A DNA stretch of 64,000 nt from Planctomycetota bacterium (GTDB lineage Bacteria; Planctomycetota; UBA11346), in NCBI GenBank assembly GCA_038213805.1, contig JBBQSO010000007.1, forward strand, positions 9,127-73,126, given 5' to 3'. The notes beneath the pieces were generated by a model, which was not told where the DNA came from, did not search any database, and saw nothing but the letters and a program-made list of their open reading frames with translations. Each line of letters begins with the position of its first letter. The stretch's first letter is position 1. The position numbers and the translations under genes are program-made. Positions 1,185 to 64,000 of the stretch are shown piece by piece.

Positions 1185-1883
1185 TCAGCGCCTAACAATG
1201 CCATCCTTCACCGCACGACGCACCGCGGCGGCGATGCAGTTGACGTGCAGTTTGCGGTAGATGCAGCGCGTCACGTAGTCGACGGTGTGCTGGTTCAGCT
1301 CCAGGCGGCCGGCGATCTCCTTCTTGCTGAAGCCGTCGACCATCAGTTCGAGCACCTCGCGTTCGCGCGCGACCAGGCCGGGGTCGTCGCGGACGGTGGG
1401 CGCGCCAACGGGCGCCGCCTGCATTCCATCTGAGGCCGCGGACGGCGCCTCGCCCGGGGCGATGCGCGCGAACATCGCCAGCACGCGGCGTGCGACGCGC
1501 GGATTCATCGGGGCGCCGCCGGCCAGCGTCTCGTCGATGGCGGTGAGCACGGTGGCGAGCGGTTCGGATTTGAGCAGGTAGCCGGAGGCGCCGGCGCAGA
1601 CTGCCTGGAAGATCTTGTCGTCATCTTCGAACACCGTCAGCACCACGATGCCGGTGTCGGGCGCGACCTGCTTGATGCGGCGGATGCCTTCGATGCCGTC
1701 GATGCCGGGCAGGCCGATGTCGAGCAGCACCACGTCTGGACGTTCGCCGGCGGCGAGGCGCGCGAGGGCGTCCTCGCAGCGCCCGAATTCGGCCAGTGCG
1801 TCGCCGGCGCGCCGTGCGGTCAAGGCGCGCGCGGTGGCGCGGCGGAACGCGGCGTTGTCCTCGATGATCCACAGCGTGGTCAT
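1185..1883 (-). CDS. Two-component response regulator, NarL/FixJ (LuxR-type HTH) family
   Basis: REC domain (IIEDN...VVLLDIGLPGIDGIE...VVLTVFEDDD) plus a C-terminal LuxR HTH (REREVLELMVDGFSKKEIAGRLELNQHTVDYV). Its start overlaps the stop of the kinase gene (ATGA at 1880-1883). Confidence 0.9.
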   Translation of the reverse strand: MTTLWIIEDNAAFRRATARALTARRAGDALAEFGRCEDALARLAAGERPDVVLLDIGLPGIDGIEGIRRIKQVAPDTGIVVLTVFEDDDKIFQAVCAGASGYLLKSEPLATVLTAIDETLAGGAPMNPRVARRVLAMFARIAPGEAPSAASDGMQAAPVGAPTVRDDPGLVAREREVLELMVDGFSKKEIAGRLELNQHTVDYVTRCIYRKLHVNCIAAAVRRAVKDGIVRR

Positions 1884-3925: not shown

Positions 3926-4009
3926 GCGGGGATCGTGGCGGAGGTGACGGGGTTACAATCGCGGGGGAGGTAGGGTTGTGGGGGAGAGTAGGTTGGATTG
4001 CGGGGCATG

Positions 4010-4140
4010 GGGACTCGGGAGTGCGGAGTGCGGAGTGCGGAGTGCGGAGTGCGGAGTGCGGAGTGCGGAGTGCGGAGTGCGGAGTGCGGTGCGCGGTGCG
4101 CGGTGCTGGGTACGGGATGCGGGATGCGGGATGCGGGAAT
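4010..4140. repeat. Heptanucleotide microsatellite: (GGAGTGC) x about 10, then (GGTGCGC) x 2, then (GGGATGC) x 3-4
   Basis: The repeats are directly visible between the divergent starts of the histidine kinase (3925, minus) and the esterase (4287, plus). The 7-bp unit is not a multiple of three. Confidence 0.85.
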
Positions 4141-19225: not shown

Positions 19226-19906
19226 TCAGGCGTCCCCTGCGGCGGCGGCGGCGCGCGGGATCCAGTCCTCCCAGCTCAGCACGTGCGCGCGCAGGTGCTC
19301 CTCGCAGACGGCCGGGGAGCGGCTGGTGAACAGGCGGATGATCTCGGTGTGCGCGCGCACGGTCTCGGCGCGCACCTGGCGGGTGCGGCGCTCGTGCAAG
19401 CGGTGCAGGCGGCCCAGCCACATGCCGAGCTCCCAGCGCAGGGCGCGCCAGGCGCGCAACAGGCGGGCGTTGCCGCTGGCGGCGAGGATGAGCTCGTGGA
19501 ATTCCAGATCGAGGCGGGTGATCTCGGCGATCGAGGTGGCGCGCGCAGTCGCGGCGACGTTGGCCATCAGCGCCGCGGGATCGGCGCGCAGCTGCGGCGC
19601 GGCGAGACGCGCCGCCAACGGTTCGAGCGCCACGCGCATGGTGAAGAGCTCTTCGAAGTCCTGGCGGGTCAGGCCGCGCACGTAGGCGCGGCCGGTGGGA
19701 GAGAAGCGCACCAGGCCTTCGCGCTCGAGCACCACCAGCGCCTCGCGCACCGGCACCCGGCTGACCCCCAGGCGCCGCGCCACCACGGCCTCGGCCAGGC
19801 GGTCGCCGGGGGCGAGGACTTCGGCGATGATGTCGGCGCGCAGCTGCGCGGCGGCGGCGTCGGAGCGGGGCAGGGGTCGCGCAGCGGCGGGGGCGGTGGT
19901 GGTCAT
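19226..19906 (-). CDS. GntR-family (FadR/FCD-type) transcriptional regulator
   Basis: Internal Met start MTTTAPAAARPL. HTH block RLAEAVVARRLGVSRVPVREALVVLEREGLVRF followed by an FCD-like helical C-domain. Its stop overlaps the start of the DUF1592 gene, so it likely forms an operon with the GntR gene first. Confidence 0.8.
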   Translation of the reverse strand: MTTTAPAAARPLPRSDAAAAQLRADIIAEVLAPGDRLAEAVVARRLGVSRVPVREALVVLEREGLVRFSPTGRAYVRGLTRQDFEELFTMRVALEPLAARLAAPQLRADPAALMANVAATARATSIAEITRLDLEFHELILAASGNARLLRAWRALRWELGMWLGRLHRLHERRTRQVRAETVRAHTEIIRLFTSRSPAVCEEHLRAHVLSWEDWIPRAAAAAGDA

Positions 19907-19910
19907 GGTG

Positions 19911-19943
19911 TTCGGTATACCGTTCTGGGAACAGTATACCGAA
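19911..19943. promoter_or_regulatory. Candidate GntR operator: inverted 10-bp arms TTCGGTATAC ... GTATACCGAA, each containing a GGTATACC / AGTATACC palindrome
   Basis: TTCGGTATACCGttctgggaaCAGTATACCGAA lies 5-40 bp upstream of the GntR start, in the divergent region shared with the beta-lactamase-family gene. GGT-AT-ACC matches the generic GntR-family operator pattern (GT-N-AC). A third related site CCGGATACCGG is at about 19961. Confidence 0.4.
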
Positions 19944-20063
19944 TCTTCCAACGGCCGTTGCCGGATACCGGGCGCGGTGGGTCTGCTACCGGACCAGGTC
20001 CATGAGATCGCTCGGCGACGCCACCGCAGTCGCGCCGTAGAGCTTTCCCGGAGCCTGCATCCC

Positions 20064-22824: not shown

Positions 22825-23898
22825 ATGCCCCTGACTCCCAGCGGTCGTCGCCCATCCGGCAAGGCTAGCGAAGTCATGGCCATCCTGGAACAGCGCATCC
22901 GGGGCGGCGACTACCTGGTCGCGCCGCTGCCAAGCGGCCGCGAGCTGGCGGCCGAACTGGGCGTCAGCTACGTGACCGCGCGCAAGGCCATCGGCGCGCT
23001 CCAGGCGCAGGGTCTGCTCTCGCGTGGTGGCAATGGACGCTTGGTGCTGGGTGGGCGGCGCGCCGGCGGTCAGCTCGCCCAGCTGGCCTTCATCGCCCCC
23101 AACTTCCCGTCGCTGGAGGTGATGCGCTGGCGCCTGGCCATCGACCGCCTCGCCGACGAGCACCCGTGCGCGGTGAAGAACCATTTCTTCCGCCACTGGC
23201 ACGATCCTGCGCTGATCGACATCATCGAACGCAGCGATGGCGCCTTCCTCTATCCCAGCGCCGAGAAGGTGCCGGCCGCGTTCGCTGCACGCCTGCGCGC
23301 GCGCCGCATCGTGGTCATCGACCAGGACTGGAGCGCGCTTGGCGTGCCCTCGATCTGCTGCTTCCCCGCAACCTTCGTGCGCGCCCTGCTCGACCACTGC
23401 CGCGCGCGCGGGCACCACCGCATCGCAGTCCTCAACACCCAGCCGCACGATCATGCCATCCAGGCGCGCCTCGCCGCCTACCACGGCTGGGCCGTCGACC
23501 ACGACATGGTCCCGTACCTGATCGACGCCCCGGTGCTCGTCGGCGAGGATCCCGCGGTGCATGCGCAGGCGGTGCTGGCCGCGGCGCTGCGCGGCGGCGT
23601 GCGCGACTGGAGCGCGTTGTTCTGCACCACCGGCACGGTCGCGCTCGCGGCGATGCGCGCGCTGCACCTCGCGGGCATCGCGCCCGGTCGCGACGTCGCC
23701 GTCTGCACGCTGAACGACGACGGCCTGGGCGAACTCGTCATCCCCTCGCTGACCGCGCAGGCGCCCGTCGACCCGACGCCCTACCTGCGCCAGACGCTGA
23801 CGTGGATGCTCGATCCGCAGCGGGCGTGGCAGGGCGCGACGCTGATCCAGCCAGAGGGCTGCGAAGTGGCGGTCAGGGAATCGACGGGCGCGGGGTGA
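22825..23898 (+). CDS. Transcriptional regulator with GntR-type HTH and a LacI/periplasmic-binding-protein-like sugar-binding domain
   Basis: GRELAAELGVSYVTARKAIGALQAQGLL HTH, then a PBP-type fold (RIVVIDQDW...RIAVLNT...ALFCTTGTVALAAMRAL). An alternative start is MAILEQ at 22876. Confidence 0.7.
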   Translation: MPLTPSGRRPSGKASEVMAILEQRIRGGDYLVAPLPSGRELAAELGVSYVTARKAIGALQAQGLLSRGGNGRLVLGGRRAGGQLAQLAFIAPNFPSLEVMRWRLAIDRLADEHPCAVKNHFFRHWHDPALIDIIERSDGAFLYPSAEKVPAAFAARLRARRIVVIDQDWSALGVPSICCFPATFVRALLDHCRARGHHRIAVLNTQPHDHAIQARLAAYHGWAVDHDMVPYLIDAPVLVGEDPAVHAQAVLAAALRGGVRDWSALFCTTGTVALAAMRALHLAGIAPGRDVAVCTLNDDGLGELVIPSLTAQAPVDPTPYLRQTLTWMLDPQRAWQGATLIQPEGCEVAVRESTGAG

Positions 23899-24014
23899 TG
23901 GCGGCGTGCGGGATGCGGGGTGAAGGTGCCATGCGAACCCAGAGCGGGAAAAGCGTGATGGCGGCGTGCGGGCCGCGGGGTGAAGGTGCCATGCGAACCC
24001 AGAGCGGGAAAAGC
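23895..24014. repeat. Tandem duplication of a 60-bp unit (2 copies, 2 mismatches)
   Basis: gtgatggcggcgtgcggga/cc-t/cgcggggtgaaggtgccatgcgaacccagagcgggaaaagc occurs twice back to back, starting at the regulator stop codon. Confidence 0.75.
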
Positions 24015-24139: not shown

Positions 24140-25020
24140 GGGCAATGCCCTACCCATTACCCACACCTGTTGTCGACAGCGCATAATAATCGGAAATCTG
24201 CCGATTTCTGAGCCTTCCGAGCAAGCGACATCGACTAGCCCAGGGCGTCAACCCTGCTCACTACCCACAAGTCGCAGCACTCGGGCACTGACCCTCATAT
24301 CAACCCAGTCCTGTCCGCAGCCCGCGGAGCGGGCGACACATCGTAGCCCAGGGCGTGAGCCCTGGGAACCTCGGTTAGAGAGGAGGATAGGAGCCCGCGG
24401 AGCGGGCGGCACAGGTCCTGCCACTTCGAAATGAGGTGAATGCCGGGTGAGTCGTGATGATCCACGGACATCCCCAGATCGGGCCCCAATGGTCGTACAT
24501 TACCGCTGAGCCTGCTGTGTCGCCACTCCGTGGGCTGGCCCGCAGACACGCCGCGCGACCCAGGGCTGGGGGCCCTGGGCTACGATGTGTCGCCCGCTCC
24601 GCGGGCTCTGAGTGGCTGCGATTCGACTGACGTGTGGGTAATGGGTAGGGCTGAAGATTGGCGCCGCGCCATTGGCGCTCACGACAGGCGCCCTGCATTT
24701 TTCAATGAATTGGAGGGGTTGGTCGACTTGTGGGGAATGAGCAGGGCGTTGTCCTGGGATGACCGTCTGGTCGCGCCGTTGGCGCTCACAGCAGACGTAC
24801 TTCCGGCAAATGGTCCCGGACGACCCTGACTTGCGGGTAATGAGCAGAGCTCACGCCCTGGACTGCGCTCTTCCCCCCGCTCCGCGGGCGGAATTGCCGA
24901 TGACCGACCATCTCAGCGCTTTGTCACAGGTCACCCAGCCCCACATGGAGTTGCGGGTGATGAGCAGGGCGTTGCCTTGAGCCAGGAGAGGTCGCGCCCT
25001 TGGCGCTCGAGATCGCAATC
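24140..25020. repeat. Non-coding island of REP-like hairpin elements arranged as roughly 100-120-bp degenerate tandem units (forward copies from about 24560 to 25020, inverted copies from about 24140 to 24370)
   Basis: Recurring blocks: TTG[TC]GGGTAATGAGCAGGGCGTTG (four times forward at about 24632, 24730, 24832 and 24951; reverse at about 24150 and 24245); GCGCC-N-TTGGCGCTCAC near-palindrome (three times); CCCGCTCCGCGGG hairpin (four times); CCCAGGGC-N4-GCCCTGGG hairpins. No convincing ORF spans 23899-25445. Confidence 0.6.
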
Positions 25021-25274: not shown

Positions 25275-25298
25275 GTTTCCTAAAATCAGGGGATCGTC
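25275..25298 (-). promoter_or_regulatory. Degenerate copy (opposite strand) of the GATC-N3-CCGATTTTYAGACA motif found upstream of two other glycoside hydrolase genes
   Basis: The reverse complement reads cgacGATCcccTGATTTTAGgaaac, compared with GATCgtgCCGATTTTTAGACA (42700) and aATCccGATTTTCAGACA (63526). About 150 bp upstream of the GH-A/PA14 gene. Confidence 0.3.
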
Positions 25299-25445: not shown

Positions 25446-28091
25446 ATGCGCATGCCATTCCTCCCCGTCGCACTCGCTCTGGCTGCCTGCGCGCCGCTGG
25501 CCGCCTCCGACGTGTTCGCAGATTTCGCCATCCCCGACCTGCTGCCGCTGGCCAAAAAACACAGCGTGATGAACACCGGCGCGATCAAGCTCAAGAGCCA
25601 CTACGACCGCGACCTAGGCAAGCTCGGCGAACTGAAGGCGGGCTCGCTGCGCCTCGACCTGTCGATCGGCAAGCGCGACGATGCGCCGATGTGGTGGGAC
25701 GTGGTCAATGGCCCGGATCCCGACCACCTTGGCTACAATTTCGCCAACGTTGACTGGCTGGATGGTGAACTGACCAAGCAGGACACCCTGCCCTACTGGG
25801 GCCTCGTCTATATCCCGATACCATTCCAGGATCCACGTCAGCCAGCGGACGACTGGCGCTTCCTCGATCCCGACCGCTTCAACTGGGACCGCTGGCAGGA
25901 GGCTTCACGCACCTTCGCGGGTCACGTGCGCGGCCTGCACCAGCATGGCTACCTCGAGGCGCTGAACGAGCCCGACCTGTACCTGCCGTGGATCACCGGA
26001 ACCGACACCGAAAACCTCAAGAAGGGATATTTCCTGCGCGTGCCCAACATGGACACCCAGCTTGAGCCGACCACCTTCCAGATGTACGTGCGCACGGCCA
26101 AGGGCTTCAAGGAGGGCGATCCGGACGCGGTCGTCGGCGGTCCGGCGCTGGCGGGCGCAGCGATGCAGTGGACGGGCCCGTTCCTCGACTATGTCGCGGG
26201 CAACCAGGCGCCGATCGACTTCTTCTCGTTCCACGTGATCAGCGGCGACGATCCGTTCAGCGTGGTCATCCCGCGCACCCAGGGCGTGCGCAATCAGCTC
26301 GCCGAACGCGGCTGGGCGCACTCGGTCGAGATCCACATGAACGAGTACAACGCCTACGGTCATCCCTGGGACCAGGACACCAACTCCAGCGACCTCGCCG
26401 TGCATGTCATCGAGAACTGCCACGACCTGCTCGGCCAGCACGACCTGACCGTGATCAGCTGGGCACAGGCGATGGACAACAGCCAGGTACAGGGCGCAGT
26501 GAACGGCGACCAGACCGCCGGCCTGATCGACTGGGAGGGCAACCGCCGGCGCGCCTTCAGCGCCTTCGCGATGTACGGCGACATCCCGATGCCGAGCTTT
26601 CGCAGCAGCGAAACTGGCAGCATCCACACCATGGCCGGCGCCGACGCGGGCAAGGCCGGCATCATCGTGTGGAACAGTGATGGCGCGCAGGCCAGCGACG
26701 TGACCGTGACCGCGCACCACATCCCCTTCGCGAACGCGGTGTTCCGCCTGGTGGTGATCGACCCGACCGGCACCGGCAACCCACAGGGCCTGAACCCGTC
26801 GGTGCAGGAGACCCAGGCGATCACCAATCCGATGTTCCGCATCGTGCACCTGCCGCCGCGTTCAGTCGCCTACCTGTCGTGGACCAGCACCACCGCACCA
26901 GCGCTGGCGGCGCCCGCAGGCCAGGTGGTGCGCGTCCACCACGACTACCCGAACCGCGCCACCCACTCGTGGGCGGAATACGACCGCCGCGCCTGGACCG
27001 CGTGCCTGGGCATGGACGACGCGAACGACCTGCAGATCGTCGGCACCACGGTGCGCGAGCTCGCAACCACGGTGCACGTGTCCTGCCGCACGGCCGGCGC
27101 GCCCGCCAGCGGCACGCTGGGCATGCGCATCGACTACCTGACCGGCGGCGGCTATACGAAGAGCGTGCTCTTCCACGGCGGCCTGGCCGCTGGCTTCACT
27201 CTCCCGTGGGGCAGCGGGCGCCCCGTCGACCAGAGCGTGGCGATCGCGCTCGGTGACGCCGACATCATTCCGGGCGATTTCGCACCGGCGGGCTGGCTCG
27301 GGCAGGCGGTGGTGACGTACGTGATGAACCATACTGGGAACGGCACGCGTGCGACCTTCGTGCTGAGCGCCGGTGGGTCGACGGGGACGGGAACAGGAAC
27401 GGGAACGGGAACGGGAACGGGAACGGGAACGGGAACGGGAACGGGAACGGGAACCGGAACCGGTACTGGCACAGGGACCGGGACGGGTCTGCCCACCGGA
27501 GGCAGCGGCGTCGGCCTGACCGGCCAGTACTTCGCCACGAGAGACCTGAGCGGCCCGGCGCTGACGCGCACCGACCCGGTGATCGATTTCACCTGGGACA
27601 CCACGCCACCCATCGCGGGCATCGGTCTGGCCGACTACAGCGTACGCTGGACCGGCACCATCCAGGCGCCGACCAGCGAGCCCTACACCTTCCACGCGTT
27701 CAGCGACGATGGCGTGCGCCTGACGGTCGACGGCCACCAGCTCATCGATCATTGGGTCGACCAGGGGGTGACGGAATCCACCGGCACCATCGCCCTGACC
27801 GCCGGGCACAGCTACGCCATCACCATGGAATACTACCAGCACGCTGGCGGCGCGACCGCGCGGCTGCTGTGGAGCACGCCCTCAAGTCCGACCGCCGCCG
27901 TGGTGCCCCAGTCGCGGCTCATTCCGGCGGCGGGTGGCGCAGCGGGGACGGGAACGGGTGGCGGTACTCCGGCGATCTCAAGCACGAACGGCAGCGGCTG
28001 CGGCTCAGGAATCGCGGCGGTGGTGCTGATGCTGAGCGCACTGTCGATGATACGCCTGCGCGGCGCGGGTGGGCGTCAGCCGCCGGAATGA
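25446..28091 (+). CDS. Secreted clan GH-A glycoside hydrolase (GH39/GH5-like) with (Gly-Thr)n linker, PA14 domain and Cys-Gly/TM/Arg C-terminal sorting-like tail
   Basis: ATG preceded by GAGG. Signal peptide MRMPFLPVALALAACAPLAA. LEALNEPDL motif (NEP acid/base of clan GH-A). A run of about 19 GT dipeptides. PA14 block (GQYFATRDLSGP...YTFHAFSDDGVRLTVDG...YAITMEYYQ). Ends GSGCGSGIAAVVLMLSALSMIRLRGAGGRQPPE. Confidence 0.8.
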   Translation: MRMPFLPVALALAACAPLAASDVFADFAIPDLLPLAKKHSVMNTGAIKLKSHYDRDLGKLGELKAGSLRLDLSIGKRDDAPMWWDVVNGPDPDHLGYNFANVDWLDGELTKQDTLPYWGLVYIPIPFQDPRQPADDWRFLDPDRFNWDRWQEASRTFAGHVRGLHQHGYLEALNEPDLYLPWITGTDTENLKKGYFLRVPNMDTQLEPTTFQMYVRTAKGFKEGDPDAVVGGPALAGAAMQWTGPFLDYVAGNQAPIDFFSFHVISGDDPFSVVIPRTQGVRNQLAERGWAHSVEIHMNEYNAYGHPWDQDTNSSDLAVHVIENCHDLLGQHDLTVISWAQAMDNSQVQGAVNGDQTAGLIDWEGNRRRAFSAFAMYGDIPMPSFRSSETGSIHTMAGADAGKAGIIVWNSDGAQASDVTVTAHHIPFANAVFRLVVIDPTGTGNPQGLNPSVQETQAITNPMFRIVHLPPRSVAYLSWTSTTAPALAAPAGQVVRVHHDYPNRATHSWAEYDRRAWTACLGMDDANDLQIVGTTVRELATTVHVSCRTAGAPASGTLGMRIDYLTGGGYTKSVLFHGGLAAGFTLPWGSGRPVDQSVAIALGDADIIPGDFAPAGWLGQAVVTYVMNHTGNGTRATFVLSAGGSTGTGTGTGTGTGTGTGTGTGTGTGTGTGTGTGTGTGLPTGGSGVGLTGQYFATRDLSGPALTRTDPVIDFTWDTTPPIAGIGLADYSVRWTGTIQAPTSEPYTFHAFSDDGVRLTVDGHQLIDHWVDQGVTESTGTIALTAGHSYAITMEYYQHAGGATARLLWSTPSSPTAAVVPQSRLIPAAGGAAGTGTGGGTPAISSTNGSGCGSGIAAVVLMLSALSMIRLRGAGGRQPPE
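27382..27487 (+). repeat. In-frame hexanucleotide repeat (GGGACG/GGAACG/GGAACC)n encoding a (Gly-Thr)n linker
   Basis: acggggacgggaacaggaacgggaacggga... runs for about 100 bp inside the GH-A/PA14 gene. Confidence 0.85.
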
Positions 28092-41492: not shown

Positions 41493-42560
41493 ATGCAGAC
41501 CATGCCATTCGCCCCCGTGCCCAGCCTGCGCGAGATCTCAGAACGTTGCGGCATGGCCAGGTCGACGGTCGGCCACATCCTGGGCGGTCGCTCGCACCTG
41601 TTCCGGCCCGAAACGCGCGAGCTGGTGCTGCGCACGGCGGAGCAGCTGGGCTGGAAGCGGCCCGCGGACTGGCGGTCCGTGCGGCGTGCGCGCTTCGGCT
41701 GCGCTGTGCTGCTGAAGAGCGTCATGCAGGAATGCAGCTGGATCGGGATGAATTTCCTCGTCGCCCTCGAAGACCGCCTGCTGGATCGGAACATGCACCT
41801 GGCGATGGCGCGCCTGCCCGACGCCACCCTCGCCTCGGAGACCGCCCTGCGCCGGCTGCTGAAGCAGTGGTCGGCCGATGGGATGTTCATCAGCTACACG
41901 CAGCGGCCCCCACCGCGCCTGCACGCGCTGATCGCCGGCCTGGACCTGCCCGCGGTGTGGCTGAACAGCTGCGCCGCGATGGATGCGGTGCACCCCGACG
42001 ACCTGGGGGCTGGACGCAGCGCAGCGGAGCTGCTGCTCGCAGCGGGTCACCGCCGCATCGCCTACGTCGGATATGCTTTTCCGCTCAACACGCCAGCCGA
42101 CAAACTGCACTACAGCGACGCGGATCGTCCAGCCGGCGCCCGGACTGCGGTGCTCGCCTGCGGAGCGGACTGGCGGCATGTCGGTGGCGTCGACAGCACC
42201 TTGGTCGCCACGTGGCGCGAGCGCCTGGCGCGCAGCGACCGCGAGACCGCCGTGATCGCCTACAGTCCGCACCAGATCCTGCCCGTGCTCCATGCCGCGG
42301 CGCTGCTGGGCCTGCGCGTGCCCCATGACCTGTCGCTGATCACTTTCCACGACGAGAACGTGCGGCTGCTCGACCAGGAGATCGCTTGTCTCGAGCTGCC
42401 CGACGCAAACCTCGCCGAGATCGCTGTCGCGCATCTCTGCGCCCGCATCGGTGGCGCGCCGTCCCGTGCGCTTGATCCGGTGCCGTTCACGGTGCGTTCG
42501 ACGCTGACGGTCGGGCCGCCTCCAGCGCGCGGACCGTCGCGGTCGGGCACGCGGCACTGA
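41493..42560 (+). CDS. LacI-family transcriptional regulator
   Basis: N-terminal HTH SLREISERCGMARSTVGHILGG, then a PBP-type sugar-binding fold. Confidence 0.85.
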   Translation: MQTMPFAPVPSLREISERCGMARSTVGHILGGRSHLFRPETRELVLRTAEQLGWKRPADWRSVRRARFGCAVLLKSVMQECSWIGMNFLVALEDRLLDRNMHLAMARLPDATLASETALRRLLKQWSADGMFISYTQRPPPRLHALIAGLDLPAVWLNSCAAMDAVHPDDLGAGRSAAELLLAAGHRRIAYVGYAFPLNTPADKLHYSDADRPAGARTAVLACGADWRHVGGVDSTLVATWRERLARSDRETAVIAYSPHQILPVLHAAALLGLRVPHDLSLITFHDENVRLLDQEIACLELPDANLAEIAVAHLCARIGGAPSRALDPVPFTVRSTLTVGPPPARGPSRSGTRH

Positions 42561-42693
42561 CGCGGACGGGCGCTGCCCGACCAGACGCGGCGCGGCGCGC
42601 ATCAGCAGCGCTGCAGCGTGGAAGAAAAATCAGCACTACATGAGGCAGGCGCGTTCGCGCCGACCCGCAAGCGTCCACGTTTCCGGACGTGTC

Positions 42694-42746
42694 ATACTCC
42701 ACCGATCGTGCCGATTTTTAGACAGCTGCTTAGACATGGGTGGGCT
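42694..42746 (+). promoter_or_regulatory. Conserved upstream element (copy 1): TCATACTCC-N10-CCGATTTTTAGACAGCTGCTTAGACATGGGTGGGCT
   Basis: Near-identical in layout to 63513-63565 upstream of another glycoside hydrolase gene. It contains the direct repeat TAGACA-N6-TTAGACA. Lies between the LacI gene and the GH31 gene. Confidence 0.45.
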
Positions 42747-42939
42747 ACGCTGCCGGGCCATGCCCCAGCCCGCCCGACCCGGCCATCCACGCGCACGCGC
42801 GCCCTCGGGGCATTGCTTGCCGTTACTTTGCTGGTCGGCGCGACCGCCTGCATCCGGGCCGCGGATCTGCAGGTGATGACCGTCGGCGACGCGATCACCG
42901 CCGGCTTCCAGTATCAGCCTCACTCAAAAGGAAAAGCAC

Positions 42940-45900
42940 ATGAGCCTCGCTCCCCGCCGCGACACCACGCTGTCGATCCGCTCCTCGCGCCTGCTGTCGA
43001 CCGCCCTTGGCGGGCTTGGCTGCCTGGCCCTGTCCACCGCGGTGGCGGCGGCCGAGCCTGGGAACGTCACGCTCCAGGCGCAAACCGCGGAATCGGTCAC
43101 CCTGGCCAACGCCGGGGGTGATCGCGTCTTCGTGCGCGTGCTGAAACCGAATCTGCTGGAGGTCGATTACCGCCCCGGCAACCAGACCTCGCCAATGACG
43201 CTGATCATGGATCCCGGCTTCGCCGCGAAGACCTGGTCGCCGGGCACCGTCTCGATCGCCGATGGCGCGTCCGAGGTGGTGCTGACCACGTCGGCCATGG
43301 TCGTGCGCATCGCCAAGTCCCCCTGCCGCGTGAACGTCTACGAGACCGACGGCACGACGCGCATTTTCGGCGAGGCGGCCGCCGCGGGCATGACCGACGC
43401 GCGGGTGAAGTTCGAGTTCGACGCGAACCTCAACTGGTACGGCATCCAGTCCGCGCCCAGCACGCGCGGACGGGAGATGGGCTCCACGACCTTGGGCGAT
43501 TATGTGACCAAGACCTTCGTCACGCAGCTCACCCGGCAGAACGTCACGCCGGCCGTCGACCTGAACGCGCGCTGGCACGGCAGCGAGACCGGACCCTTCG
43601 CGTGGACGACCGGCGCCGCCAGCAAGCGCGGCTTCGGTGTGCTCTGGGACAACGATGGCGGCAGCGTCGCCTTCTCAAGCACCACGCTGGAGATGAACAA
43701 GACCAACGAGCGCTGCGTCAGCGCCGTCTCGTCGACCAAGCTGGACACCCTGTGGTTCGCCATGGTGGGCACGCCCACCGAAATCACCCAGGCGATGATC
43801 GAGCTCAGCGGCCGCCCCCAGATGTTCCCCAAGTACGCCCAGGGCTTCGGCAACACCGAGTGGGGCATCAACGAGGAGGAGCTGCGCTCGCACATCAACG
43901 CCTACCGCTCGCGCCACATCCCGCTCGACCACTTCATCCTCGATTTCGACTGGAAGGCGTGGGATCTGAACGACTACGGCAACTTCGAGTGGAACCTGCG
44001 CGCAACGAACGTCGCGGCCAGCGACTTCCGCGGCTTCCCCGCGGCCAGCGACACCACGCTCAAGACCTACACCGACGCCATGGGTGTGAAGCTGATGGGC
44101 ATCACCAAACCCCGCCTGCACGTCGACACCGTGCAGGGCGCGGTGATCACCGCGGGGGCGGCGACCGGGGCCACCTGGCGCAACGCCGGCAGCGTCGGCT
44201 GGTGGCTGCCGTCCGGTAGTCCGAGCACCTTCAAGACCGACTACTGGGGTTCGCAGCGCGGCCGCAGCGACAAGGTCGGCAACCTGAACTTCTTCATCCC
44301 CGCAGCGCGCGCCTGGTATGCGCAGAACAGCATCGACCGCGCCTTCGATAAGGGCATCGTCGGTTACTGGCACGATGAAGGCGACGAAGGCCCGGATTCG
44401 GGCGACATCCCGTCCGCGAGCAACTTCTACAATCCGCTCTACCAAGAAGGCATCTACACCTACCAGCGCGCCAACAAGCCGGGGACCCGCGTCTGGTCGA
44501 TGAACCGGCACTCGTACCTGGGTTCCCAGCGCTACGGCTATGGCGTCTGGAGCGGCGACATCAGCACCGACTGGCGCACGCTCAAGACCGAGGCGCCGCG
44601 CATGCTGCAGACCATCAACGCCGGCATGGCGCGCACGGGCACTGACGCGGGCGGGACCGCGGGAAGCGCGGATTCCATCGGCACGATCGCGACCGACGGC
44701 GTGAGCAAGAACGTCCCGACCGACGAGTTGTACGCGCGCTGGCTGCAATTCGCGGCCATGCAGCCGACTTTCCGCATCCACGGCGTCTACCTGATCAACC
44801 GCCAGCCGTGGTTCCACGGCAGCGAGGCCGAGATCGCGGCGACCGAGGTCATCCGCCTACGCTCGCGGCTGATGCCGTACATCTACGCGCACGACCGCAT
44901 TTACAGCGAGACGGGTGTGCCCTTCGTGCAGCCGCTGGTGTGGGACTATCCCAAGGATGCCAACGTCGCGGAGCGCACCGACGCGTGGATGTTCGGCCGC
45001 GCACTGCTGGCCGCTCCGATCCTCGAACCCCGCGCCACCGTCACCAGCCCCGACGGCAGCCTGTCGATGGCCGGGACCACCAGCAAGTCCATCTACCTGC
45101 CGGCGGGAACCTGGTACGACTACTTCCGCGGGACGGTGCACGCGGGCGGCGCCACTTTCATCTACCCGGTGTCCACGTCGACGCTGCGCGAACTCCCGCT
45201 CTTCATCAAGAAAGGCGCGATCATCCCCAGCCTGCCCACGGCGCTCGACCACGTCGCTGCCGCGCCCATCACCACGGTGCGCCTGGACATGTTCCCGGAC
45301 ACCGCGCTGACCAGCTTCACCTATTACGACGATGACGGCGTCAGCTACCAGTACGAGAGCGGAACCTTCTTCAAGCAGGCCGTGTCGGTGCAGCAGAGCG
45401 GGTCAACCGTCACCGTCGCCTTCGCCGACAAGCAGGGCGGATTCGCACCCGCGCTGCAGCACTATCTGATCGCGATCAACAAGTTCTCGGCAACCACGGT
45501 GGCCGGCTTCACCAGCTTCGCTTCGCAGGCCGCGCTGGAGGCTGCCTCCGGTGAAGGCTATGCCATCGGGTCGGGCGTGCACGGCAGCATCACGTACATC
45601 AAGGTCGCTGCAGGCTCTGCGCGCACCATCACCGCGACCGGGACGAATCCGGGTCTGGGCATTGCGACCACCACGCTGCCCGCGGCGACGCGGAATGCCC
45701 CCTATGACGCGCAGCTCGGCGCAGATGGTCTCGGCGCCAGCTCCACCTGGAGCGTCACGCCCGCCCTTCCCGCCGGCCTGGTCTTGGATGCGCGCACCGG
45801 GCGCATCACTGGTGCAGCGACTGTCGCGGGCAGCACCTCGTACACCTTCCAGGTGTCTTCGGGCGCGACCGCCAGCAAAGCGCTGACGCTGACCGTGACC

Positions 45901-47484
45901 GCCGCGCCGCTGCTCGCCCATGAAGCGTTCCCGTACACCAGCGGCGCCATCGACTGGAATGGCCAGGGCGGCGAGAACGGCTTCGCCGAACCTTGGAACC
46001 GGCTGGTCGGCGGAAATGGCCAGGGCCAGGTTCCGGTGTATCCCGCAAGCTACGTGGCTGGGCTTTCCGCTTTCGGAGTCACCGCCACGGGCGGCGCCGT
46101 GCAGCTGACGAGCGTGCAGCAAATCCCCGGAAATACCAACAGCCAGAAGAACCCCGAGTATGCGCGGCGCCTGCTGACCGGGTTCAGCGATGGCGGCTCT
46201 GCTGGCGCCAACGCCTGGATCAGCTTCATCGGCAAGGGTACGACTCCCGGCACAGGCTATCTCGGCGTCGGCCTCTTCAACGGCAACACCGAGAAGATGT
46301 TCATCGGACAGCGCTTCGGGATGAGCAACTGGGGTGTCGAGGTCGCCGGTGGTGGTGGATCCGCCGACAGCACCTCCAGCCTGTCGAGCACCGCCTTCGT
46401 GGTGGTGAACATCCGCGTGCTCAGCGGCAGCTCGCGGGAGGTGCGGCTGTGGGTGAACCCGACCCCTGGAACGTCGGCGCCGAGCGATGCGGGCGCCGCC
46501 CTGGTCACCACGGGCACGGAGCTGTCATTCGACACGCTGCGCCTGCGCGGCGACAGCATGGTATCCAAGCTGACCGTCGACGAGTTGCGCGTGGGCGCAT
46601 CCTTCGCCGATATCAGCGGCGTCACCGTGGCGCATCCGACGCTGCAGGTGTCGCGGGCCGGCAACGCGATCGGCGATGGCGGCAGCGATGTGGTCGTCGG
46701 AAGCGCTGCGGGCACCGCCCAGGCGCTGACCTTCGTACTGACGAATTCAGGCTCCGCCCCGCTTTCGGTCACCACACCGGTCACGGTGTCGGGCATGACG
46801 AACTGCTCTGCGTCGGTCACGACCCAACCGGGCAGCGCGATCGGCACTGGAGCCACGTCCGACCTGGTGGTGACCGTGACGCCGACCGCCGTCGGCGCGT
46901 GGTCGCTCGCGCTGGCGGTGGTGAACACCGACAGCAATGCCACCCCGTACGACTGGACGGTGACGGGCACGGCGGGCGCCGTCGCGGTTCCCGGACTCGC
47001 CATCACCCGCAGCGGGACGACCATCGCCGATGGCGGGACGGATGGGGTCGCCGGTGCAGTCGCCGGCTCGCCCCAGGCGCTGACCTACGTGCTCGCCAAC
47101 AGCGGCGGCGCTGTGCTCGGAGTGACCGTTCCCGTGACCCTGTCGGGCGTGACCAACTGCACCGCGACCGTGACGACGCAGCCTGCTGCATCGATCCCCG
47201 CCGGTGGAAACGGCACGTTCGTGCTGACGGTCACCCCGACAGTCGCCGGGCCGTGGTCGTGCTTGGTCTCGATCACGAACACCGACGTCAGCCACGCGCC
47301 CTACGACTGGACCGTCTCCGGCACCGCGCAGGCGGCCGTCAGCGGGCCGACGGGCGGCTCGAGTGGTGGCTCGAGTGGTGGCGGCAGCCATGGCTGCGGC
47401 CTGGGGCAGGGCATTGCGTTGGTACTCATGCTCGGGTTCAGCCTGATGTGGCGATTCAGGAGCGGGCGTCGGCCCACGGGCTGA
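42940..47484 (+). CDS. Secreted GH31-family glycoside hydrolase (alpha-glucosidase/alpha-xylosidase-like) with multiple C-terminal Ig-like/beta-sandwich domains and a Cys-Gly/TM/Arg sorting-like tail
   Basis: RBS AAAGGAAAAG. Signal peptide. GH31 nucleophile region GIVGYWHDEGDEG (compare GIDGFWNDMNEP) and acid/base region RHSYLGSQRYGYGVWSGDISTDW. Ends GGSHGCGLGQGIALVLMLGFSLMWRFRSGRRPTG. Confidence 0.85.
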   Translation: MSLAPRRDTTLSIRSSRLLSTALGGLGCLALSTAVAAAEPGNVTLQAQTAESVTLANAGGDRVFVRVLKPNLLEVDYRPGNQTSPMTLIMDPGFAAKTWSPGTVSIADGASEVVLTTSAMVVRIAKSPCRVNVYETDGTTRIFGEAAAAGMTDARVKFEFDANLNWYGIQSAPSTRGREMGSTTLGDYVTKTFVTQLTRQNVTPAVDLNARWHGSETGPFAWTTGAASKRGFGVLWDNDGGSVAFSSTTLEMNKTNERCVSAVSSTKLDTLWFAMVGTPTEITQAMIELSGRPQMFPKYAQGFGNTEWGINEEELRSHINAYRSRHIPLDHFILDFDWKAWDLNDYGNFEWNLRATNVAASDFRGFPAASDTTLKTYTDAMGVKLMGITKPRLHVDTVQGAVITAGAATGATWRNAGSVGWWLPSGSPSTFKTDYWGSQRGRSDKVGNLNFFIPAARAWYAQNSIDRAFDKGIVGYWHDEGDEGPDSGDIPSASNFYNPLYQEGIYTYQRANKPGTRVWSMNRHSYLGSQRYGYGVWSGDISTDWRTLKTEAPRMLQTINAGMARTGTDAGGTAGSADSIGTIATDGVSKNVPTDELYARWLQFAAMQPTFRIHGVYLINRQPWFHGSEAEIAATEVIRLRSRLMPYIYAHDRIYSETGVPFVQPLVWDYPKDANVAERTDAWMFGRALLAAPILEPRATVTSPDGSLSMAGTTSKSIYLPAGTWYDYFRGTVHAGGATFIYPVSTSTLRELPLFIKKGAIIPSLPTALDHVAAAPITTVRLDMFPDTALTSFTYYDDDGVSYQYESGTFFKQAVSVQQSGSTVTVAFADKQGGFAPALQHYLIAINKFSATTVAGFTSFASQAALEAASGEGYAIGSGVHGSITYIKVAAGSARTITATGTNPGLGIATTTLPAATRNAPYDAQLGADGLGASSTWSVTPALPAGLVLDARTGRITGAATVAGSTSYTFQVSSGATASKALTLTVTAAPLLAHEAFPYTSGAIDWNGQGGENGFAEPWNRLVGGNGQGQVPVYPASYVAGLSAFGVTATGGAVQLTSVQQIPGNTNSQKNPEYARRLLTGFSDGGSAGANAWISFIGKGTTPGTGYLGVGLFNGNTEKMFIGQRFGMSNWGVEVAGGGGSADSTSSLSSTAFVVVNIRVLSGSSREVRLWVNPTPGTSAPSDAGAALVTTGTELSFDTLRLRGDSMVSKLTVDELRVGASFADISGVTVAHPTLQVSRAGNAIGDGGSDVVVGSAAGTAQALTFVLTNSGSAPLSVTTPVTVSGMTNCSASVTTQPGSAIGTGATSDLVVTVTPTAVGAWSLALAVVNTDSNATPYDWTVTGTAGAVAVPGLAITRSGTTIADGGTDGVAGAVAGSPQALTYVLANSGGAVLGVTVPVTLSGVTNCTATVTTQPAASIPAGGNGTFVLTVTPTVAGPWSCLVSITNTDVSHAPYDWTVSGTAQAAVSGPTGGSSGGSSGGGSHGCGLGQGIALVLMLGFSLMWRFRSGRRPTG

Positions 47485-60213: not shown

Positions 60214-63183
60214 TCACGTGCGCGTCCGGCATGATGGCGCTCCCAGCGCTGCGGCGCGACCGGGCGCGCACCTGGGGTCTTTAGCGAGCGCGAGACGCCG
60301 TCGCCGGATGATCCCGCCCGGGGTGAGCAGAGCGGCGAGGATCATCGCGGCGCCGAGCAGGGACCCGCTCCCACAGGGGTGCTTCGCGCCACCAGCGCCG
60401 GTCCCGGACGCGGCAATGGGAGGCAGCGGATCCGGAGCCGAAACCGTCTGCAGGTTGGCGCTGCCGATGATCGCCGGCGCGGGGTCGTCAGCGTTCGTAG
60501 ACCACGCGACCGAGGCGTGGTCCTCGGCGTCGTTGGCGTCGCTCTTCTGCAGCAGTTCAAGCGCATACGCGATCCCAGCGACCAGGACGATCGGCCCTGA
60601 TCTCTGCGTGGTCTGGGTGGTCCAGGCGCGGTACGCCGTGCCACTGCCCATCACCTCGGCGATCTTGACCCGGCCCGCGGGATCGGCGGTCGGAGAGAGC
60701 CACAGTTCGCTGCGTCCCCGGGAAGCCACCCAGAAGGTGTAGGTGCCCGAACTGGTCGGCACGACGTTCGCGCGCACCCGGTTCCCCGCCTCCTTTGACC
60801 AGTTGCGACCGATGTCGAGGCTTTCGAGTTCCTGCCGGACCGCCCAATGGTTGGGGAATTCTGGACGGATGTGGCTGCTATCGCCAGTCAGCTGCCAGAT
60901 CTCGGTGCCGAAGCTCAGCACCCACCCCTCGCGGCGGGCGGTCCCGGTGCCGAGCGCGCCGTCAGGCCTGGCAACGATCACCTGCCGCGGGAGCACTTCG
61001 CGGCCATGGTGGTGCACGCCATCGGCAGGCGGGACCCAGGCGAGCGCGAATTGCTGGTTCTTGGGACTCGCACTGCCCGTCGTGCCGTCGGTGCTGTCGG
61101 TGGTCTGAACCAGCTCGAACCAGTAGCGCCGGCCGGCGCTCAGGGTCCGCGGGGCGACCGCCTGGCCAGCGTCCTTGTCCCATTCCCGCGCCAGCGAACC
61201 ACGGCCAGCGGTGCTCGCGACCAGGGTGGCGTCGGCCTCCTGATCCGTGGTCGATAGCCGCAGGCGGACCTGCTCGCCACCGGCGATCCAGAACCGGTAG
61301 CTGCCACTCGCCGGCGGCACGATCCAGCCGCGCGCCACCCGCGCTGAACTGCCGACGACATTTGGTTGGCCTTCGCACACCGGTGGCAGCGCGCGGAAGA
61401 GCGGGGCCTTGCGCACGTAGCGCGCGTCCTTGGCGAGGTTGAGCGCCGCCGCGGTGGCGGGATCGCGGCCGCCAGCGCCCTCGTACCACTCGATGTCGAG
61501 CAGGCCATCGCTCGCCACGGGGACGCGGTCGGGTTCGCTGCAGGTCGAGCCGGCCTCGAGCGTGACGCCACCACGGCCCACCTGATTCTTCCAGGTCGCG
61601 AAATCGGCACCCGCGAACCCCTTGCGGAACAGCGGGCTGTCCTGGTGATAGGTGTTGCCGCTGCACACCAGGGTCGCGATCAGCGGCGGCGCATGGCTGG
61701 CGTCATCTTCGTGGGCGATCAGCGACTGGAGGTAGCTTTGCGCTACCAGGGTGTTGCCGGTGATGGTCACGTCCTGGGTGCTGGCGACGGTCGCGGACAG
61801 GCCGGTGTCGCGGTCGGTGGTGCTGCCCGTGCGGCTGCCGACGCTGAGGTTGATCGCGCCATCGATGTTGTTGGCGATGGCATTGCCGGTGATGGTGACC
61901 TGGCGGGTGGTGTTGAGGTGGATGCCCCACGAGCCGTTGTCGCGGATGACGCAGTCGCGCACCACGTCGCCTGGCAGGTTGATCTCGAAATACGCGCCGC
62001 CGCCCCAGTTCGCAGCAATCGAGCAACCCTCGACCGTCACATCCTTGCAATAGACGTCGAACCACAGGCCGCGGGCGAGGTTGCCTTCCACGGTGAGGTT
62101 CTTGAACAATGCATGGTAGAGACCGCCATTCTTGCTGCCCGCATCGATGTCTCCGGATTGGCGTCCCCACAGGCCGCGCCACCAGTTGCGGGCGATGGTG
62201 CTGTTCTCGAAGCGTACGTAGGAAGACCCGCCGAACGAGACCCCGGTGCCGCCGTTGTCCGCCATCGAGCACGCGCGGACCGTCATCCGCTGAACTGCGT
62301 TGGTCGTCAGGCCACTGCCGCCGTTCCAGTCGAAGTGGCAGTTCTCGATCAGGACGTTCTCCACCCAGGGGTGCGATGAGTCGCCGTTGGTGATGTCCAC
62401 CGCGGACCCATAGTTGCCGTCCCACAGGTAACCGGCCGCGCCCTCGAAGCTGATGTTGCGGATCACCAGATTGGAATGACGCCGCAGGCCGAGCAGCTTC
62501 TGATGGGCACCGAACTCGATGACCGCAGCGTTCGGGTCGGTTGCGGTGCGCAGAACGATGGTGTGGGCACCCTCATCGACCGTGAAGCATTCCGGTCCAA
62601 GACCAGCCACGGCGGTGCGCTGTTCGAGCAGGCGGTTCCCGATCATGACGATCTCGCGCCGCGCAGCGATCTGATTGTCCGTGGGCAGCGGGTTGAATGT
62701 GGATGGCCAGCCGACGGTTCCGTAGTGCAACGTCCACGGGTGGGTCCAGGTGCCGTCGCCATTGTCGGTCCAGGCTCCGCCCAGGACCTCGAGTCCGCTG
62801 AACAGGGTGGTGGGGCGTCCGCTGGAATCGGCCTCTCCGGTGATGACCAGCGTTTTCACGGAATCCTGGTTGGTGTTCGATTCGATGTCGCCTTCGCGGT
62901 ACGTCCCAGCCTTGATGAGCACCTTGACCCGCTTGGCATCCGGATTGGGGACCTCGGTACCACCTACGAAGATGCGCGGCACGCCCAACGTCCGCGCCAC
63001 GGCCAGCCCCTTGGCGATTGTGCGGTACGGACTGGCGGCCGTGCCGGCGCCGGTGGCATCGTCGCCAGTCAGCGCGACGACCACGGTGACGTCGACCGTC
63101 TCGTCGCTGAGCGTGGTTCCCGGCACGTCGGCTGCCGGCAGGCGGGACACCATCAGCAGCGTCACGATGAGGAGAGGTCGCAT
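60214..63183 (-). CDS. Secreted right-handed beta-helix (pectate-lyase-fold) protein with two PA14-like domains and a Cys-Gly/TM/Arg sorting-like tail
   Basis: Internal Met start MRPLLIVTLLMVSRLPAA preceded by GGAG. Parallel beta-helix repeats (NVLIENCHF, VRACSMADNGGTGVSF, VEGCSIAANWGGGAYF, VTITGNAIANNIDGAINL). PA14-like blocks (GSYRFWIAGGEQVRLRLS, GTYTFWVASRGRSELWLS). The tail is HPCGSGSLLGAAMILAALLTPGGIIRRRR. Confidence 0.75.
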   Translation of the reverse strand: MRPLLIVTLLMVSRLPAADVPGTTLSDETVDVTVVVALTGDDATGAGTAASPYRTIAKGLAVARTLGVPRIFVGGTEVPNPDAKRVKVLIKAGTYREGDIESNTNQDSVKTLVITGEADSSGRPTTLFSGLEVLGGAWTDNGDGTWTHPWTLHYGTVGWPSTFNPLPTDNQIAARREIVMIGNRLLEQRTAVAGLGPECFTVDEGAHTIVLRTATDPNAAVIEFGAHQKLLGLRRHSNLVIRNISFEGAAGYLWDGNYGSAVDITNGDSSHPWVENVLIENCHFDWNGGSGLTTNAVQRMTVRACSMADNGGTGVSFGGSSYVRFENSTIARNWWRGLWGRQSGDIDAGSKNGGLYHALFKNLTVEGNLARGLWFDVYCKDVTVEGCSIAANWGGGAYFEINLPGDVVRDCVIRDNGSWGIHLNTTRQVTITGNAIANNIDGAINLSVGSRTGSTTDRDTGLSATVASTQDVTITGNTLVAQSYLQSLIAHEDDASHAPPLIATLVCSGNTYHQDSPLFRKGFAGADFATWKNQVGRGGVTLEAGSTCSEPDRVPVASDGLLDIEWYEGAGGRDPATAAALNLAKDARYVRKAPLFRALPPVCEGQPNVVGSSARVARGWIVPPASGSYRFWIAGGEQVRLRLSTTDQEADATLVASTAGRGSLAREWDKDAGQAVAPRTLSAGRRYWFELVQTTDSTDGTTGSASPKNQQFALAWVPPADGVHHHGREVLPRQVIVARPDGALGTGTARREGWVLSFGTEIWQLTGDSSHIRPEFPNHWAVRQELESLDIGRNWSKEAGNRVRANVVPTSSGTYTFWVASRGRSELWLSPTADPAGRVKIAEVMGSGTAYRAWTTQTTQRSGPIVLVAGIAYALELLQKSDANDAEDHASVAWSTNADDPAPAIIGSANLQTVSAPDPLPPIAASGTGAGGAKHPCGSGSLLGAAMILAALLTPGGIIRRRRLALAKDPRCAPGRAAALGAPSCRTRT

Positions 63184-63512
63184 GGGAACTCCGTGAATGG
63201 GGAGCATCGGTCGGCTGGTGGACAGGTGGCCGAGACCACCGCTTCGCGGTCCGCGTTCCCCCCGGATGGCATCCAGCGGGACGATCCAGGCGCAGGCGTA
63301 GCACCTTGGGAAAACCATGTCATTTCTGTGCAGGTCCTGGCCAGAATTCGCGGCTGGTGTTTTTCCAGGTCGGCCACTGCAGGCCAAGTCTCGTTTCCTT
63401 GATCGGCGTTCATCCTCGTGCTACACCGGTATAGTTGATCATCAGCGGCGGCGATCGGCGACCCACCACGCCTATCGCCGCCAAGCTCTGCCTGCACATT
63501 TCATGAGCGTAT

Positions 63513-63565
63513 CATACTCGGTGGAGAATCCCGATTTTCAGACAATCCATTAGACGATGGGCGCT
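63513..63565 (+). promoter_or_regulatory. Conserved upstream element (copy 2): ATCATACTCGG-N8-CCGATTTTCAGACAATCCATTAGACGATGGGCGCT, including the inverted repeat GATTTTCAG-N22-CTGAAAATC
   Basis: Same block order as 42694-42746. Ends 12 bp before the ATG of the partial glycoside hydrolase gene at 63577. Confidence 0.45.
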
Positions 63566-63576
63566 GAAAATCCCAC

Positions 63577-64000
63577 ATGCTCCAAATTCTCGAGGCCTTC
63601 GTGCGCCAGCTCGCGCCCGTCGCCCTCCTCGTCGTCGGACTGGCGCGGCTGTGCGCTGCCGTTGATCCATACCTGGTGACCTGGGACGCCCCCGGCATCG
63701 GCCATCGCGATTCCATGCCGATCGGCAACGGCGACCTGGGCATGAACCTGTGGACCGAGGCGAGCGGCGATGTCGTGCTGCTGATCGGCAAGACCGACGC
63801 ATGGAGCGAGAACGGCCAGCTGCTCAAGCTCGGACGGGTGCGCGTGGCCTTCACTCCCAGCCCCTTCCGCGCGGGCGCGTCATTTCGGCAGGTGCTGCGC
63901 ACCCGCGACGGCGTGATCGAAATCCACGGCGACGGGCAGGCCGTGCTGCAGGCGTGGGTCGACGCCGATGCCCCGGTCATCCACGTGCAGCTGGTCGACG
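63577..64000 (+). CDS. Glycoside hydrolase N-terminal domain protein (GH95/GH65-N-like beta-sandwich), 5' part only
   Basis: ATG at 63577 with an open frame to the window end. SMPIGNGDLGMNLWTE...LLIGKTDAWSENGQLLKLGRVRVAF resembles the N-terminal domain of GH95-type enzymes (PLGNG-LG). Confidence 0.5.
   Translation, partial: MLQILEAFVRQLAPVALLVVGLARLCAAVDPYLVTWDAPGIGHRDSMPIGNGDLGMNLWTEASGDVVLLIGKTDAWSENGQLLKLGRVRVAFTPSPFRAGASFRQVLRTRDGVIEIHGDGQAVLQAWVDADAPVIHVQLVD

Follow-up and report, generated by a model that had tools for sequence, protein, structure and literature searches.

LacI-family factors are usually local, sugar-responsive repressors, whose genes typically lie beside the sugar-catabolic genes of their regulon and whose operators are palindromes of 14-20 bp with a central CG. 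ECF-sigma promoters consist of two blocks, a -35 whose core is AAC and a -10 whose core is CGT or TC, held about 16-17 bp apart by an unconserved spacer of fixed length and followed by genes for secreted enzymes, and canonical sigma-70 promoters place a TTGACA-like -35 16-18 bp from a TATAAT-like -10. Other described promoters rely mainly on their -10 element: in the actinobacterial and proteobacterial systems governed by SARP (AfsR-type), PhoB or OmpR proteins, direct repeats with a period of 11 or 22 bp (the afs box and the pho box, which are similar in geometry) replace a missing or poor -35. In SARP promoters, the 3' repeat stands in for a poor -35 and ends 8 bp from the -10, the centre of the afs box being at -29.5 (PMC10936776). 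Leaderless genes, as in Actinobacteria and Deinococcus, have no Shine-Dalgarno (SD) sequence. Their published signature is a TANNNT hexamer about 10 bp before the start codon (PMC2238952). A literature search found no paper reporting leaderless promoters, or the arrangement described below, for Planctomycetes. To our knowledge, almost nothing is known about promoters and the regulation of carbohydrate genes in this phylum.

The stretch of DNA analysed here (hereafter the window) comprises 64,000 nucleotides, with a GC content of 69%, of a planctomycete genome, and inspection of its sequence locates two strong copies of an intergenic element, both on the forward strand. A sequence-only reading had placed them at 42694-42746 (copy 1) and 63513-63565 (copy 2); both are present, with true starts 1-4 nt away from those given. 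The shared string TCATACTC, at 42692-42699 and 63512-63519, belongs to a longer block, here called block A, which spans 42690-42700 in copy 1 (TGTCATACTCC, at about -70 to -60 relative to the ATG) and 63510-63520 in copy 2 (TATCATACTCG, whose core GTATCATAC is a perfect 9-bp palindrome). In a local alignment, the similarity sets in some 15 nt before block A and TCATACTC (CACRTTTC...) and extends to the start codon, for a total of about 85 bp.

The 14-mer CCGATTTTYAGACA occurs exactly twice in the 64 kb, even with two mismatches allowed. In a plain alignment of upstream regions, the two copies formed the first-ranked of 528 pairs with a score of 33, followed by a runner-up pair at 32, and the shuffle-based p value of 1.3e-5 became 0.007 after correction for the number of pairs. 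Since such statistics are only moderately convincing in DNA of 69% GC, we relied on an independent test, in which an HMM built solely from four loci in other genomes (L008, L010, L011 and L012) was run against the window. It detected copy 1 with E=3.7e-15 and copy 2 with E=1e-5, and nothing else below E=7, which identifies copy 2 as a true paralogue within a conserved family and leaves the window without a third member; an HMM built from the two copies also recovered those two only. The earlier statement that the identity over about 50 bp is far above chance is borne out by the independent HMM, over a similarity that is longer than stated, although the alignment score alone is not overwhelming. 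A weaker copy on the opposite strand had also been proposed at 25275-25298, tying the element to a GH39/PA14 gene (25446-28091 by Pfam; earlier termed GH-A/PA14). That stretch was missed by both HMMs, shares GATTTTAGGA only, has neither block A nor the AGAC core and points away from the gene, so that the third copy is not real and the link to the GH39/PA14 gene falls with it.

Beside copy 1, a LacI-family regulator (41502-42560, forward strand; Pfam Peripla_BP_3) ends 130 nt upstream of the element; its ORF was called at 41493-42560, and orthologues support 41502 (MPFAPV) as the true start. Protein-anchored look-ups from this LacI-family protein, whose orthologues share 62-83% identity (one of them annotated as coming from a Planctomycetes MAG), led to six further copies in contigs of five related planctomycete genomes, making eight in total. 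All eight are intergenic, point the same way as the gene that follows and have block A 67-70 nt ahead of its ATG, before three unrelated gene families (counts that overstate independence, since several of the copies are orthologues). Every gene served encodes a carbohydrate-active enzyme, namely a GDSL esterase, a GH31 or a DUF5703/GH95-like enzyme. Both the proposed tie to CAZyme genes and the view of a cis-regulatory or promoter element, as opposed to a dispersed repeat, are supported across the family.

The order of genes around the element varies. In L008 (GCA_013821615.1) it runs LacI, element, an intact 703-aa GDSL/Calx-beta esterase and GH31; in L010, element, GDSL/Calx-beta gene and LacI; in L011 and L012, LacI, element and then GH31 directly; and in L021 and L022 the element directly precedes N-terminal GH31 fragments. 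Through the rearrangements that separate L008, L010, L011 and L012 the element travels with its gene, and the adjacency of LacI to copy 1, already noted from the window, is kept in these four loci (five including the window). The scan covered 64 kb from the source genome and roughly 50 kb from related loci. The module is absent from the more distant LacI loci L013 and L014, and the regions upstream of DUF5703 gene orthologues (up to 70% identity) are without the motif. An exact-pattern scan with CCGATTTTYAGACAN{4,6}TTAGAC over 185,579 species genomes, a set that does not include the source genome, gave four hits at chance level, in unrelated taxa of lower GC content, and a degenerate pattern of blocks A and B gave five hits in JGI metagenomes, all of them coding or low-GC chance matches. 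As a separate observation, L013 holds the 11-mer AGATTGAGACG, identical to box 1 of L011, at 2335-2345 (forward strand), 17 nt before the ATG of a prepilin-type (N_methyl) gene, and an inverted GAGTCATACTCCC at 2171-2189 (reverse strand); this separate occurrence suggests that block A and the AGAC box may be separable sites.

Aligned in one register, the eight copies read TRTCATACYCS-N12/13-W6-NAGACR-N5-TTAGACR-N8-10-nAnnnT-N5-8-ATG, with spacers that diverge freely and blocks that stay constant. Eight of the 11 positions of block A (TRTCATACYCS) are invariant in all copies, and its core, GTRTCATAC, is a 9-bp palindrome or near-palindrome, perfect in copy 2, L021 and L022. After a spacer of 12-13 nt without conservation follows an A/T tract fused to the first box, NAGACR, at approximately -46 to -36 from the ATG (ATTTTTAGACA at 42714-42724 in copy 1, ATTTTCAGACA at 63534-63544 in copy 2). 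In 8/8 copies, exactly 30 nt separate the starts of block A and AGAC, and A25, T29 and AGAC are invariant throughout. The second box (T-K-A-G-A-C-R, at about -30 to -24) is TTAGACA at 42730-42736 in copy 1, 12 bp after box 1, and TTAGACG at 63550-63556 in copy 2; it is kept in five of the eight copies, with a period of 12 bp in every two-box copy, and is degenerate in L012, L021 and L022, where it reads TTGGCTG, TTGGCAC or TTCCCCT. The direct repeat described from the two strong copies, TAGACA-N6-TAGACR, is real and has a 12-bp period, but its second half belongs to five of eight family members only, and its loss in the other three means that tandem binding is not obligatory.

The most proximal part of the element is an nAnnnT hexamer, present 5-8 nt before the ATG in 8/8 copies and separated from it by GC-rich nucleotides, which reads TACGCT at 42746-42751 in copy 1 (8 nt before the ATG) and GAAAAT at 63566-63571 in copy 2 (5 nt before it). 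The eight hexamers are TACGCT, TATGAT, TAAAAT, TAAACT, GACGGT, GAAAGT, CAGGTT and GAAAAT, so that four are TAnnnT and the others (three GAnnnT, one CAnnnT) are without the first T. Between copy 1 and L008, the closest pair, 7 of the 8 nt before the hexamer differ, and within the hexamer only the T, A and T have been retained, all three inner bases having changed; the GCCGGGCC-ATG that follows is identical. A 9-bp inverted repeat had been pointed out in copy 2, and it is indeed there and lets this copy fold well (z=-2.6), but it is not conserved across the family and is incidental, arising because the conserved T tract pairs with the A-rich hexamer GAAAAT; L010 shows the same effect with TAAAAT.

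An SD sequence is absent before the ATG in seven of the eight copies, L022 having GAAGGA beside its ATG. GH31 carries an AAGGA SD where it is operon-internal (at 42940 in the window and 13399 in L008) and has none in L011, L012 and L021, where the element directly precedes it. Outside the family, a strict TAnnnT stands 6-9 nt before the start in 7 of 45 other gene starts of the window and the related loci, against 0.3 expected from background, and the seven include three LacI orthologues (TAAGAT-8-ATG, TAGGAT-6-ATG and TAACGT-8-ATG). A scan of both copy regions for the sigma-70 consensus and for terminators found nothing, and sigma-54 (GG-N10-GC) and Bacteroidetes-type (TAnnTTTG) readings were rejected by eye.

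The gene that copy 1 now precedes differs from the one to which it originally belonged. Between the element and GH31 (42940-47484, forward strand; Pfam GH31 E=1.4e-53), which has its own AAGGA ribosome-binding site, lies the relic 5' end of a GDSL/Calx-beta esterase gene (42760-42919, forward strand), frameshifted and truncated to about 160 nt. The relic can be aligned with the 5' end of the intact GDSL gene of L008 (703 aa), its ATG at 42760 coinciding exactly with the start of that gene, and it retains the start codon and the signal peptide up to the GDxIT motif, the remnant reading ...ALLAVTLLVGATACIRAADLQVMTVGDAITAGFQYQ. About 2 kb of the GDSL gene has been deleted relative to L008, and GH31 consequently now stands behind the esterase promoter. 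Copy 1, first described as an element upstream of GH31, does serve that gene, through the relic, but was originally the promoter of the GDSL/Calx-beta esterase gene. Copy 2 precedes the 5' part of a DUF5703_N (GH95-like) gene (63577-64000, forward strand; Pfam E=1.7e-37), which extends past the end of the window and whose homologues are named alpha-L-fucosidase 2 by JGI; a beta-helix/PA14 protein is encoded at 60214-63387 on the reverse strand (Pfam).

Three secreted proteins of the window have a C-terminal tail in common, made up of G-C-G-x-G, a hydrophobic helix and an Arg-rich end: GH31 (47380-47484), GH39/PA14 (27990-28091) and the beta-helix/PA14 protein (60214-60320, reverse strand). The NCBIfam sorting-domain models gave no match to it (best, GVDTG_CTERM, E=0.065), and the tail may be an undescribed C-terminal sorting signal. 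The GH39/PA14 gene also contains a 6-nt array, (GGGAAC)n, at 27357-27494, which encodes a Thr/Gly linker, and a 7-nt tandem array, (GGAGTGC)n, occupies 3994-4136, where two divergent genes meet. Two matches to the Rfam Acido-Lenti-1 sRNA (RF01687), at 24319-24366 (reverse strand) and 24559-24607 (forward strand), together make up a perfect inverted repeat of 36 nt; with 44.9 bits one exceeds the gathering score of 37, and the other, with 32.9, falls short of it. They lie inside a repeat-rich non-coding stretch of 1.4 kb (23.9-25.3 kb) that includes a 60-bp tandem duplication at 23895-24014.

We propose that the element is a complete, lineage-specific leaderless promoter with its regulatory module, rather than a single operator, and give this reading a probability of about 0.5. 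The proximal nAnnnT hexamer would be the -10 element, constrained at positions -12, -11 and -7, and, as it lies so near the ATG, the transcription start that we infer should yield a transcript that is leaderless or nearly so. The SD contrast of GH31, the TAnnnT hexamers ahead of other genes of the lineage and the published signature of leaderless genes all favour this. There is no -35 hexamer and no extended -10, which points to a factor-dependent promoter: RNA polymerase would need a transcription factor on the AGAC box or boxes, in place of a -35, and the predicted mode of control would be activation rather than repression. With 8-10 and 20-21 bp between them and the proximal hexamer, the TAGACA boxes would constitute the proximal factor site, ending 8-10 bp from the -10, and block A would offer a second, distal, class-I-like docking site at about -65. 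The factor could be the adjacent LacI-family protein or a response regulator, and the module would co-regulate secreted enzymes acting on glycan side chains, namely the GDSL esterase, GH31 and the GH95-like DUF5703 protein. Several features count against this proposal: the invariant A25...T29 in block B might itself form a distal -10, for which block A would lie at the distance of a -35; the boxes repeat every 12 bp, against the 11 bp of OmpR, PhoB and SARP sites; and four of the eight proximal hexamers are without the first T, with L022 having GAAGGA by its ATG.

Those invariant bases lend themselves to a promoter built from the two upstream blocks, in which block A would act as a -35-like element of ECF type, or as an operator over the -35, nATTTT (positions 24-29) would be the -10, and a start just after AGACR would give a leader of 32-35 nt without an SD sequence. 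Such a promoter would account for two strongly conserved blocks around an unconserved spacer of fixed length, and TRTCAT, a 17-nt spacer and nAnnnT are found in 8/8 copies with one 1-nt shift, A25 and T29 being invariant while the inner bases vary (TAAAAT in L022, CAGATT in L011); it also fits a dispensable second box. We nevertheless consider it unlikely, as block A matches TTGACA at only 1-3 of 6 positions and is without the AAC motif typical of an ECF -35, block B is without a CGT-type ECF -10, and no sigma-factor gene occurs among the window ORFs scanned. It would, moreover, leave unexplained the ATG-linked nAnnnT, the constraint of 37-40 nt from AGAC to ATG before three gene families, and the loss of the GH31 SD sequence exactly where the element adjoins. 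Distal and proximal promoters could also coexist. The same leaderless promoter may, on the other hand, be repressed rather than activated, the blocks being operators of the adjacent LacI-family protein from which sugar relieves repression; this we hold to be doubtful, and it overlaps in part with the leaderless, factor-dependent reading, in which the LacI protein is a candidate binder with non-canonical specificity. The LacI gene adjoins the element in five loci despite changes in gene order, and its product aligns over its full length, N-terminal DNA-binding region included, with the NCBIfam models of RbsR and PurR. Against repression by LacI stand the AGAC boxes, which are direct repeats where LacI dimers are two-fold symmetric, the promoter without a -35, which argues for an activator, and the fact that no LacI gene is seen beside copy 2 in the visible part of its locus. 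No conserved palindrome of 14-20 bp exists between -70 and +95 of block A (best mean, 4.8 of 10 pairs, over six copies in fixed register), nor did a de novo search find one common to 14 LacI-flanking intergenic regions, and both searches agree with the sequence-only reading that the element is not a classic LacI palindrome.

Some features of block A and of the copy 2 hairpin would suit a promoter further upstream, with block A (TGnCATACT) as an extended -10 and the AGAC boxes within a 5' UTR of about 55 nt, as a roadblock operator or as an RNA element (a riboswitch or protein-binding leader). TGTCATACT reads TGn plus CATACT in copy 1, L008 and L012, TATCAT forms a TAnnnT hexamer in copy 2, L021 and L022, and copy 2 has the stable hairpin (z=-2.6) mentioned above. 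L010 and L011, however, keep A-11 and T-7 in neither frame (TGTCAT, CATACC), the RNAalifold consensus reaches only -0.27 kcal/mol with no compensatory pairs, of six copies folded singly, five were no more stable than shuffled sequences (z from +0.06 to -0.75), copy 2 being the exception, and neither copy region has a relevant Rfam match; we judge this arrangement very improbable. A pairing of TGTC in block A with GACA in box 1, suggested by RNAalifold, was also discarded, being broken in the three TATC copies without compensation. That the copies are a chance similarity, a dispersed repeat or a mobile-element remnant of no regulatory role might be argued from other upstream pairs that score close to them in this GC-rich window (32 against 33) and from exact-pattern scans of genome and metagenome collections that gave chance-level hits only. 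This view is largely refuted, and chance or a mobile repeat essentially excluded, by the detection of both copies with an independent HMM, by conservation at orthologous positions in five other genomes with diverged spacers, by a constant orientation and distance to the ATG, and by the lack of terminal repeats and of a transposase. An att-site or other mobile element was rejected as well, the longest exact shared match being 9 bp, the spacers diverged and mobility genes absent.

Compared with the described systems, the leaderless, factor-dependent promoter that we favour is closest in geometry to SARP and PhoB sites: box 2 ends 8-10 bp before nAnnnT (8 bp for SARP), direct repeats occupy the place of a -35, and the promoter likewise relies mainly on its -10. 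It departs from them in its period of 12 bp rather than 11 or 22, in the loss of the second repeat in three of eight copies, in the additional upstream palindromic block A, in that no gene of OmpR or SARP type was found near the copies, and in its occurrence in Planctomycetes. With published leaderless promoters it shares the nAnnnT near the ATG, the missing SD sequence and the recurrence at other genes of the lineage, whereas half of its hexamers begin with G or C instead of T. Like LacI/GalR operators, it adjoins a LacI-family gene and precedes sugar-catabolic genes, in the layout of a local regulon, but it offers direct repeats and one 9-bp palindrome in place of the central-CG palindrome. 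The two blocks, the spacer of fixed length, the compatible spacing and the downstream genes for secreted enzymes recall ECF promoters, of which it lacks both core motifs and an adjacent sigma or anti-sigma gene, none being seen, and to which it adds a -10-like hexamer beside the ATG. Unlike in canonical sigma-70 promoters, there is no TTGACA-like -35 at the usual distance from a TATAAT-like -10, TAGACA lying 20-21 bp from the hexamer. Set against these systems, the element is not a LacI operator, a SARP/PhoB box, a canonical ECF promoter or an Rfam RNA, and its mode of action is probably that of an actinobacterial-type leaderless promoter which has a -10 only and depends on an activator.

Regarding the factor, the LacI-family protein has a recognizable but divergent HTH (SLREISERCGMARSTVGHILGG), which the Pfam HTH model missed. 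The subfamily formed by the window protein and its orthologues (P0076-P0084) carries an HTH, STVGHILGG, that is too divergent for Pfam PF00356, and the more distant LacI homologues all match that model. Three partial likenesses serve as leads only: TAGAC is presumably half of the DasR dre core (GTCTAGAC, GntR/HutC-type), although the element contains no full dre palindrome; the GT..AC outline of the palindrome GTATCATAC is one that we also take to be GntR/HutC-like; and TACYCS of block A resembles what we take to be the NarL heptamer (TACYYMT). The window encodes GntR-family regulators, a NarL-type regulator and receiver-only regulators, those of the GntR family and NarL type lying 20-40 kb away. 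One GntR/FCD gene (19226-19906) has two GGTATAC boxes (cggTATACTgttcccagaacgGTATACCg) upstream, at 19907-19950 on the reverse strand, which are probably its own operator. A two-component system at 1185-3925 (reverse strand) combines a NarL/GerE-type response regulator (1185-1883) with a histidine kinase whose sensor domain is of F5/8 type C (discoidin, carbohydrate-binding), and is a possible glycan sensor. A more far-reaching proposal, which we regard as quite unlikely, is a regulon of an uncultured Planctomycetes lineage under a non-canonical regulator, either a LacI-family protein whose divergent HTH would read the asymmetric or tandem AGAC boxes and the 9-bp palindrome, or a lineage-specific sigma factor or activator, driving leaderless transcripts of the secreted enzymes for glycan side chains; if true, CAZyme genes would be controlled in a way so far undescribed in Planctomycetes.

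As a kind of element, a promoter that carries factor-binding sites and governs a small sugar-catabolic regulon is ordinary, though this motif appears not to have been described. For annotation, the element corrects start codons and exposes the deleted GDSL gene: the GH31 fragment P0121 (L021, 61-132) was called with a 24-codon N-terminal extension, in which MYHTRTGARFFRQ... is the element read as protein. For the biology of Planctomycetes, the module supplies a concrete, testable motif for glycan-degradation genes, and the sequence evidence suggests that, in this lineage, operons often begin with a leaderless gene. The candidate regulon of GDSL esterase, GH31 and GH95-like enzyme would be suited to taking off side chains of three kinds: acetyl, xylosyl or glucosyl, and fucosyl.
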